A DNA stretch of 64,000 bases from a phage. Position 1 is the first letter of the stretch. Each line of letters starts with the position of its first letter. The stretch lies in the sequence record PZ386975.1. One strand, 5' to 3'. This document shows positions 17,407 through 17,420 of this stretch, piece after piece. The translations under genes were made by a program, and so were the position numbers. Below the pieces are notes generated by a model that was not told where the DNA came from, searched no databases, and was given only the letters and a program-made list of their open reading frames with translations.

Positions 17407-17420
17407 GGGGGGGGGGGGGG
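17407..17420 (+). repeat. homopolymeric G tract (about 14 G) forming the 5' arm of a module hairpin
   Basis: ACGGGGGGGGGGGGGGTAACAACCTCCC replaces the GGGGAGG..CCTTCCCC hairpin of other type-B modules. Confidence 0.9.

Follow-up and report, generated by a model that had tools for sequence, protein, structure and literature searches.

The run of 14 consecutive G residues at positions 17407-17420 of the 64 kb window (the whole stretch of phage DNA that was analysed) is best explained as a real expansion, made by slippage, of a stem-loop arm that had lost its interrupting base, and the expansion would be tolerated since G-U pairing keeps the RNA stem. We give this reading a probability of roughly 0.6. 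The tract is probably a tolerated mutational hot spot and not a new kind of switch. A preliminary description of this DNA had placed a 14-nt poly-G run exactly here, upstream of the open reading frame (ORF) 17468..17809, and the sequence confirms it. The 14 G's lie in the context ...TAAATTGTCAATCAAC-G14-TAACAACCTCCCACTACATAAAACCCTTAAACTAGGAGATTCAAAAAATG, and positions 17380-17470 read ...TAGACAAGCCTGATAAAAGTCTGTAAATTGTCAATCAAC-GGGGGGGGGGGGGG-TAACAA-CCTCCC-ACTACATAAAACCCTTAAACTAGGAGATTCAAAAAATG. It is the sole G or C run of 8 or more nucleotides in the window, the next longest being C6, and all seven overlapping G8 matches in the window fall inside it, whereas shuffled sequences gave an expectation of 0.27.

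The DNA is that of a Felix O1-like myovirus, a Felixounavirus; the records of Felixounavirus that match it at 80-97% identity number more than 200, and the G+C content of the window is 39%. A megablast search with positions 15000-20000 returned 258 phage records, nearly all of them Felixounavirus from Escherichia, Salmonella and Shigella hosts, with 90% identity in the best full-length match. In the early region, the genes are small, fall into PHROG families whose function is unknown, and all lie on the + strand. A Pfam search gave no match for the genes flanking the tract, and neither did an Rfam 15 covariance-model scan of the tract region (12500-19500) at E-values up to 1. For the 176-aa neighbour at 18029-18559 (homologues in loci L061-L075), there is a precomputed annotation as PF26821 (Phage_T4_Y16F), but our Pfam scan of the window's protein returned nothing at E-values up to 0.01, a discrepancy that may be due to a difference in library version. 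An exact-product look-up of the same protein found none on record. A 147 kb entry named Staphylococcus phage SA1 (GU169904.1) also contains Felixounavirus sequence, with 91% identity across the tract locus, which suggests a chimeric or contaminated database entry.

The tract belongs to one of five intergenic copies of a cassette (15258, 16123, 17368, 17939 and 18534; alignment of five), in which a sigma70-type promoter is followed by ATCAAC, the GGGGAGGG/CCTTCCCC hairpin, a conserved A-rich leader, the Shine-Dalgarno sequence AGGAG and an ATG. In the consensus cassette, the promoter TTGACA-N17-TAAATT is followed about 10 nt further on by a G/C stem-loop of 6-8 bp, GGGGAGGG-AATGA-CCTTCCCC, and then by the leader ACTAAATAAAGTCCTTAAACT. 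The tract's own cassette, its neighbouring genes and the other four copies comprise the following features:

15258..15354, + strand: cassette copy with a normal hairpin, GGGGAGG-TAATAA-CCTTCCCC
16123..16219, + strand: cassette copy with a normal hairpin, GGGGAGGG-AATGA-CCTTCCC
17137..17370, + strand: upstream small early ORF of 77 aa, phrog_4640, function unknown (ORF list and PHROG)
17368..17373, + strand: -35 hexamer TAGACA of the tract's cassette (promoter scan), conserved at the same site in relatives
17391..17396, + strand: -10 hexamer TAAATT, invariant in five of the five window copies
17403..17405, + strand: putative transcription start, 6-8 nt past the -10 hexamer (promoter geometry)
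17407..17420, + strand: G14 tract, the 5' arm of the stem-loop; a length-polymorphic, de-interrupted GGGGAGG
17421..17426, + strand: loop TAACAA
17427..17432, + strand: 3' arm CCTCCC, a partner for any six consecutive G's (five G-C pairs and one G-U pair)
17433..17453, + strand: conserved leader ACTACATAAAACCCTTAAACT (consensus cassette: ACTAAATAAAGTCCTTAAACT)
17454..17458, + strand: Shine-Dalgarno sequence AGGAG, 9 nt ahead of the ATG
17468..17809, + strand: downstream ORF of 113 aa, phrog_4318, function unknown; homologue of Felix O1 ORF21 (NP_944820)
17939..18031, + strand: cassette copy with the promoter TTGCAA-17-TAAATT and the hairpin GGGAGG-GATGA-CCTCCC
18534..18641, + strand: cassette copy with the hairpin GGGGAGGG-AATGA-CCTTCCCC

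The promoters were recognized by their match to the sigma70 consensus: TTGACA-17-TAAATT at 15258 and 16123 matches at 10 of 12 positions, TAGACA-17-TAAATT at 17368 at 9 of 12, and the copy at 18534 has TTGACG-17-TAAATT. As the TAG stop codon of ORF 17137..17370 (17368-17370) doubles as the opening TAG of the -35 hexamer TAGACA (17368-17373), the end of this ORF overlaps the next promoter. If transcription starts at 17403-17405, the first base of the G run, and thereby of the stem, would fall at about +3 to +5; we found no mapped start sites in the literature on Felix O1-like phages. The proposal that the tract stands in for the usual hairpin arm is borne out both by the four other window copies, which have GGGGAGG(G) or GGGAGGG at the aligned position, and by related phages, in which this very site is occupied by GGGGAGG or GGGGAGGG.

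The hairpin itself is a constant element of the cassette. A pattern search that covered the window together with 15 loci from GenBank and 25 from IMG/VR returned 136 matches. These are cassette copies except for a handful (at least 7 are false positives in coding sequence), and about 130 copies are in relatives. When folded one by one, all 38 unique hairpin variants form a stem of 6-8 bp on the + strand with energies of -8 to -16.6 kcal/mol, and z-scores for the whole leaders range from -1.9 to -3.4 in the four normal copies of the window. The commonest variant, which has a G-U position, has a predicted energy of -15.2 kcal/mol as + strand RNA versus -11.8 kcal/mol for the - strand; the + strand hairpin is the more stable one because the commonest arm pair contains a G-U pair. 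The two arms co-vary by matched insertions and deletions (GGGGAGGG/CCTTCCCC, GGGGAGG/CCTCCCC and GGGAGG/CCTCCC). RNAalifold, applied to a MAFFT alignment of 35 unique hairpins, recovered four outer G-C pairs only and zero compensatory changes. This result is uninformative because arms made of G or C runs differ by indels and cannot be aligned in register. Hence, the predicted pairing is conserved on the strength of per-sequence folding and of matched indels in both arms, rather than of a covariation statistic.

Most likely, the cassette hairpin acts in RNA, as a protector of the 5' end, as an attenuator of read-through, or as both, by analogy with the promoter-early stem-loop (PeSL) cassettes of the T4-type phages RB49/phi1, PST and nt-1 (Arbiol, Comeau & Krisch 2010, PMC2839356; Comeau et al. 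2014, PMC4122927). PeSL cassettes are the closest analogue of the window's cassette. Both are short intergenic elements repeated many times among small orphan early genes; both combine a sigma70-like promoter in the intergenic spacer (here identified by consensus match) with an adjacent stable G/C-rich stem-loop; and the window's cassette, like PeSL, ends in the Shine-Dalgarno sequence and start codon of the next gene. However, Felixounavirus is not a T4-type phage, the cassette has no sequence homology to the RB49 cassettes, and its stem-loop lies past the -10 hexamer, at about +4, whereas the PeSL stem-loop is mostly found between -35 and -10 or over the -10. For these reasons, the cassette is not a PeSL by descent.

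The putative position of the stem near the 5' end invites two further comparisons. In E. coli, 5'-terminal stem-loops of the ompA leader type reportedly protect mRNAs from 5'-end-dependent decay, as Emory, Bouvet and Belasco are said to have described in 1992. The cassette resembles such leaders in that a stable hairpin would lie about 3-5 nt from the 5' end of the transcript, as placed by promoter geometry, but differs from them in that some pairing registers of the G14 allele would leave up to about 11 unpaired 5' nucleotides. In B. subtilis pyrG, reiterative transcription near +1 adds a poly-G leader that pairs with a C/U-rich strand. Here, too, a G run is found a few bases past the putative start and a C/U-rich partner just downstream of it; the G's of pyrG, however, are added by the polymerase and are not encoded.

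As with PeSL, gene insertion and replacement are bounded by cassettes, and differences in gene content between relatives fall exactly at cassette boundaries. Phage wV8 (locus L002, 1755-2160, compared with window positions 17368-17470) has an extra gene, the 82-aa gene 23, between a type-A and a type-B cassette; it is inserted at the tract's own site, upstream of the homologue of 17468..17809. In an IMG/VR contig (L060, 12213-12330), an unrelated gene follows the same promoter, and the 3' arm of the hairpin is C9. The window also contains a second cassette type, present in six copies between 13096 and 16519 (13113, 13585, 13964, 14564, 15638 and 16434) and reading TTTACA-(A/G)GGGGCTTA-N11-TAAGCCCC-AGATAAAGAGCTTTACCAC...GGAGA...ATG. 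Its stem-loop spans the promoter spacer with the -10 hexamer (TAAAGT) in the loop, which is the commonest arrangement in T4-type PeSL cassettes, so that this second type (13113-16493) is PeSL-like in layout. In the Felix O1 genome paper, a 39-bp promoter part of the first cassette (TTGACACTGGTTTTTAGATAGATTAAATTACACATCAAC) and a 57-bp element corresponding to the second type are both listed merely as direct repeats (PMC3185647), and the GenBank record of wV8 (EU877232) annotates the cassette elements only as repeat_region DR_1-DR_9. Felix O1-like phages thus carry PeSL-like promoter/stem-loop cassettes that appear in the papers and records searched as direct repeats only.

The evidence that the tract is a product of slippage comes from the comparison with relatives. 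Most of them have a normal arm at the tract site (KhF1 and wV8: GGGGAGGGAATGACCTTCCCC). Three genomes combine GGGGAGG with the same loop and 3' arm (TAACAA-CCTCCC) at the same site, namely Salmonella phage GLBO_sp7 and ENA contigs from ERZ27280638 and ERZ28617850; GGGGAGG-TAACAA-CCTCCC, the sequence of these genomes, is the ancestral state of the pure-G allele. An exact-sequence look-up of the 113-aa product yielded nine further assemblies, all of which have a pure G run. The pure-G allele is found in 10-11 independent assemblies with lengths of 5, 6 (n = 6), 7, 12 and 14, that of the window being the longest:

G14: this window (count as assembled)
G12: phage JLBYU28 (OK272472), an independent isolate genome
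G7: Logan SRR30282385
G6: ENA ERZ27237988, ERZ27238906 and ERZ28652348; Logan ERR10033205, SRR8354004 and SRR8091018
G5: Logan SRR33537024

The sequences around these tracts are nearly identical. The nearest relative of the window is the G5 assembly, at 99.2% identity over 2852 nt. With the tract removed, substitutions in 668 nt of flank were counted as follows:

G14 versus G5: 1 substitution
G14 versus G6: 4-5 substitutions
G14 versus G12: 19 substitutions
G12 versus its nearest relatives (G6): 11 substitutions
G7 versus G6: 0 substitutions
Pure-G group versus GGGGAGG group: 41-49 substitutions

Within the pure-G group, the flanks differ by 0-19 substitutions per 668 nt despite the length polymorphism. 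These distances point to a single origin of the pure-G allele followed by at least two independent large expansions. In terms of the flanking sequence, the interrupting A appears to have been lost once, and G12 and G14 lie on different branches, each with short-tract neighbours. Together, the length series and the near-identical flanks indicate that the tract is real and changes length faster than its flanks mutate.

The expectation that so long a run would be prone to slippage is therefore supported by lengths of 5, 6, 7, 12 and 14 on near-identical flanks (G14 and G5 differing at one position in 668, G7 and G6 at none). Whether related phages all have a normal arm had also been asked, and they do not: some have it, and others have a pure G run of another length. 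The comparison of lengths across genomes serves, at the level of sequence, as the comparative equivalent of a test for heterogeneity among reads. The tract also offers a convenient natural marker with which to follow micro-evolution in near-identical phages used for therapy or typing.

Lengths of G8-G11 are absent from the alleles found in the pure-G lineage. A G8 run is present at the tract's site on the background of another hairpin, AATGACCTTCCCC (L077, Logan SRR34483859), and sporadic pure runs occur in other cassette arms: G7 in IMG/VR loci L049/L051, C7 in L059 and C9 in L060. A BLAST search of about 250 INPHARED Felixounavirus records showed that JLBYU28 and GLBO_sp7 share the loop and 3' arm at 98% identity or more; tract lengths in these records cannot be counted by BLAST, as low-complexity masking hides the tract. 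Gapped allele-specific patterns had zero matches in IMG/VR and the JGI metagenomes, and these collections consequently add no alleles.

We then consider what tract length would do to the leader RNA. The local hairpin energy, calculated from the putative start, is -8.4 kcal/mol for G5, -12.1 for G6, -12.0 for G7, -13.5 for G10, -13.9 for G12, -14.2 for G14 and -14.4 for G16, compared with -12.9 kcal/mol for GGGGAGG. From G6 to G16 the energy hardly changes, since one G-U pair allows any six G's to pair with CCUCCC. The earlier suggestion that hairpin strength could vary with slippage is not supported by these predictions, since the range of -12.0 to -14.4 kcal/mol for G6-G16 brackets the ancestral value, and the predicted strength has no meaningful dependence on length above G5. 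What does change is the definition of the structure. The ensemble energy of the G14 leader (-18.7 kcal/mol) is similar to those of the four normal copies (-16.1 to -19.3 kcal/mol), but its minimum-energy structure has a frequency of 0.045 and its centroid is unpaired, whereas in the normal copies the frequency is 0.22-0.75 and the centroid equals the minimum-energy structure. The low frequency and the unpaired centroid point to register degeneracy, with many six-G registers competing for CCUCCC. The predicted unpaired fraction of the Shine-Dalgarno sequence rises mildly with a longer tract, from 0.43 to 0.53-0.61.

When quadruplexes are allowed in ViennaRNA, a two-tier G-quadruplex formed by the tract alone is preferred from G11 upward. 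The local energies are -18.0 kcal/mol for the quadruplex versus -13.4 kcal/mol for the hairpin at G11, -19.5 kcal/mol for the quadruplex at G12, and -23.7 versus -14.2 kcal/mol at G14; in this energy model, the long alleles form no hairpin at all. Two-tier quadruplexes with G loops are marginal structures. The preliminary description had envisaged a quadruplex built with neighbouring G runs. The quadruplex part of this proposal stands in the model, but the neighbouring runs are not used in it, and a structure that draws on them is unnecessary as the tract alone suffices.

These findings can be combined into the following scenario. In one sub-lineage, the cassette ahead of the phrog_4318 gene would have lost the lone A of its 5' arm, turning GGGGAGG into pure G. 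The resulting uninterrupted run would then slip during DNA replication and give rise to the length differences among near-identical phages; such slippage is the expected behaviour of an uninterrupted homopolymer in replication. Since any six consecutive G's offer a partner to the 3' arm CCUCCC, the hairpin at the RNA's 5' end would be kept at about equal predicted stability, and both the loss of the A and the changes in length would be tolerated for this reason. Surplus G's would do no more than lengthen the loop or the unpaired 5' leader and make the pairing register less distinct. The scenario assumes that the changes in length are nearly neutral. Against this assumption, the jumps from G5/G6 to G12/G14 on two branches could reflect selection in favour of long tracts, for example during laboratory propagation. 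If the scenario holds, the locus provides a clean natural example of how the loss of one interrupting base makes a conserved arm hypermutable while its structure is buffered by G-U pairing.

The alternative that fares best, although we consider it unlikely, is that tract length is under selection as a volume control of the downstream early gene, one that is heritable and reversible, i.e. that the tract is a tunable or contingency element. Five to seven G's would give a defined hairpin, longer runs a register-degenerate hairpin with a longer single-stranded leader, and 11 or more a G-quadruplex, so that mRNA stability or translation would change with tract length. Such a role would agree with a length polymorphism that is far faster than the divergence of the flanks, with two independent large expansions and a gap between G7/G8 and G12, with the switch to a two-tier quadruplex at 11 or more G's in the model, and with the loss of hairpin definition at G14 and the mild predicted opening of the Shine-Dalgarno sequence. 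In known contingency loci, poly-G or poly-C tracts phase-vary genes by slipped-strand mispairing, as in the gonococcal lgt genes (PMC2192423; review PMC11868660). Like them, the window's tract is an uninterrupted run that differs in length from one near-identical genome to the next, and such variation is the signature of slippage in replication. However, contingency tracts sit in the reading frame or in the spacer that separates -35 from -10, the two known positions of homopolymer switches, where length turns a gene on or off. The present tract is in neither; it occupies the leader, after the -10 and before the Shine-Dalgarno sequence, where length has little predicted effect. By its sequence, it thus resembles a contingency locus, and by its position it does not. 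Furthermore, the predicted hairpin energy is flat with length, most of the other pure-G alleles of the lineage (eight, of G5-G7) are too short for strong mutability or for a quadruplex, and the sporadic pure runs in other cassette copies (G7, G8, C7 and C9) are what a mutational by-product would leave.

In a more specific form of this idea, the extreme 5' end of an early mRNA would hold a 'volume knob' that is heritable and under selection, and slippage would supply it with leaders of different lengths. Short alleles would carry a protective hairpin, alleles of 11 or more G's a degenerate hairpin or a 5'-terminal G-quadruplex, and selection on different hosts would act on the ensuing differences in how stable the mRNA of the phrog_4318 host-takeover gene is or how well it is translated. 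This would account for the two independent jumps, G12 and G14, without intermediates, but we regard it as improbable. If expression were indeed tuned by tract length, this would be one of the rare cases in which a virulent phage encodes phase variation in a leader.

It is also rather unlikely that the tract is a sequencing or assembly artefact, with a true length of about G5-G7, as in the nearest relative, and a homopolymer inflated by assembly. That relative, one substitution away in 668 nt, does have G5, and all sequencing chemistries have difficulty with long G runs. Nevertheless, JLBYU28, an independent isolate, has G12 at exactly the same site. Homopolymer miscalls usually amount to plus or minus 1-2 bases and not to +8 or +9; short-read de Bruijn assemblies resolve runs of 14 bases, which are shorter than k; and the tract is internal to its contig, with correct sequence on both sides. 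An assembly artefact had been raised as a possibility in the preliminary description; as far as the existence of the tract is concerned, the independent G12 of JLBYU28 and the G5-G7 runs of 8-9 other assemblies speak against it. The exact count of 14 may be off, and the length of the homopolymer at this locus is not to be trusted in Felixounavirus assemblies.

The least probable of the alternatives, to which we attach very little weight, is that the inverted repeat serves either as an operator, bound as DNA by a protein of the phage or of the host, or as an intrinsic terminator, and that the G tract disables the site. An inverted repeat directly past a promoter is in the typical position of a roadblock repressor, but the G-T/G-U position of the commonest arm pair breaks the symmetry of duplex DNA, is mismatched on the - strand and pairs only in + strand RNA, and the arms vary by matched indels that keep the pairing and no fixed sequence. 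In the annotation of phage KhF1, this hairpin appears on the opposite strand as a Rho-independent terminator, and PeSL stem-loops worked as terminators in reporter assays (PMC2839356); we rejected an intrinsic terminator here, as the + strand tail ACTACATAAAA that follows the stem has no T/U run, a terminator scan calls neither strand, and all genes in this region are on the + strand.

Several observations outside this locus are of separate interest. A scan of IMG/VR for ATCAAC+G10 gave 21 loci, none of them Felixounavirus, and these were set aside as an unrelated poly-G tract in a methyltransferase gene. In about 15 unrelated viral contigs (IMG/VR loci L004, L006-L008, L011, L013-L016, L018 and L020-L024), a G10-G14 run lies inside a gene for a DNA cytosine-5 methyltransferase (...DAHFGDKQGLENQHIN-GGGG...; protein motifs ENVPG, QRRRRVF and GNSMAVPV). 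The methyltransferase ORF of L011, which has G14 (593-612), is intact and encodes 437 aa, and that of L013, which has G12 (4087-4104), is split into ORFs of 293 aa and 268 aa in different frames. From its sequence, this methyltransferase looks like a phase-variable phage gene.

Elsewhere in the window, a dense cluster of tRNA genes at 30000-35300 is visible as repeat families of T-arm/acceptor sequences ending in CCA and fits the 22 tRNAs that have been reported for Felix O1. Two adjacent large genes at 55761-58483 contain long internal direct repeats (195 nt at 81% identity) as well as families of 64 nt and 36 nt rich in GGTGCTCACAC.CA, i.e. in Gly-Ala-His-Thr-His-like motifs; these repeats match those reported in Felix O1 genes 76 and 77 of the tail-fibre region. 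Near the end of the window, the non-coding-looking stretch 62969-63204 carries short direct repeats (CATTACTTCACCAAACC and variants) at a spacing of 20 nt, with a second block 138 nt away.
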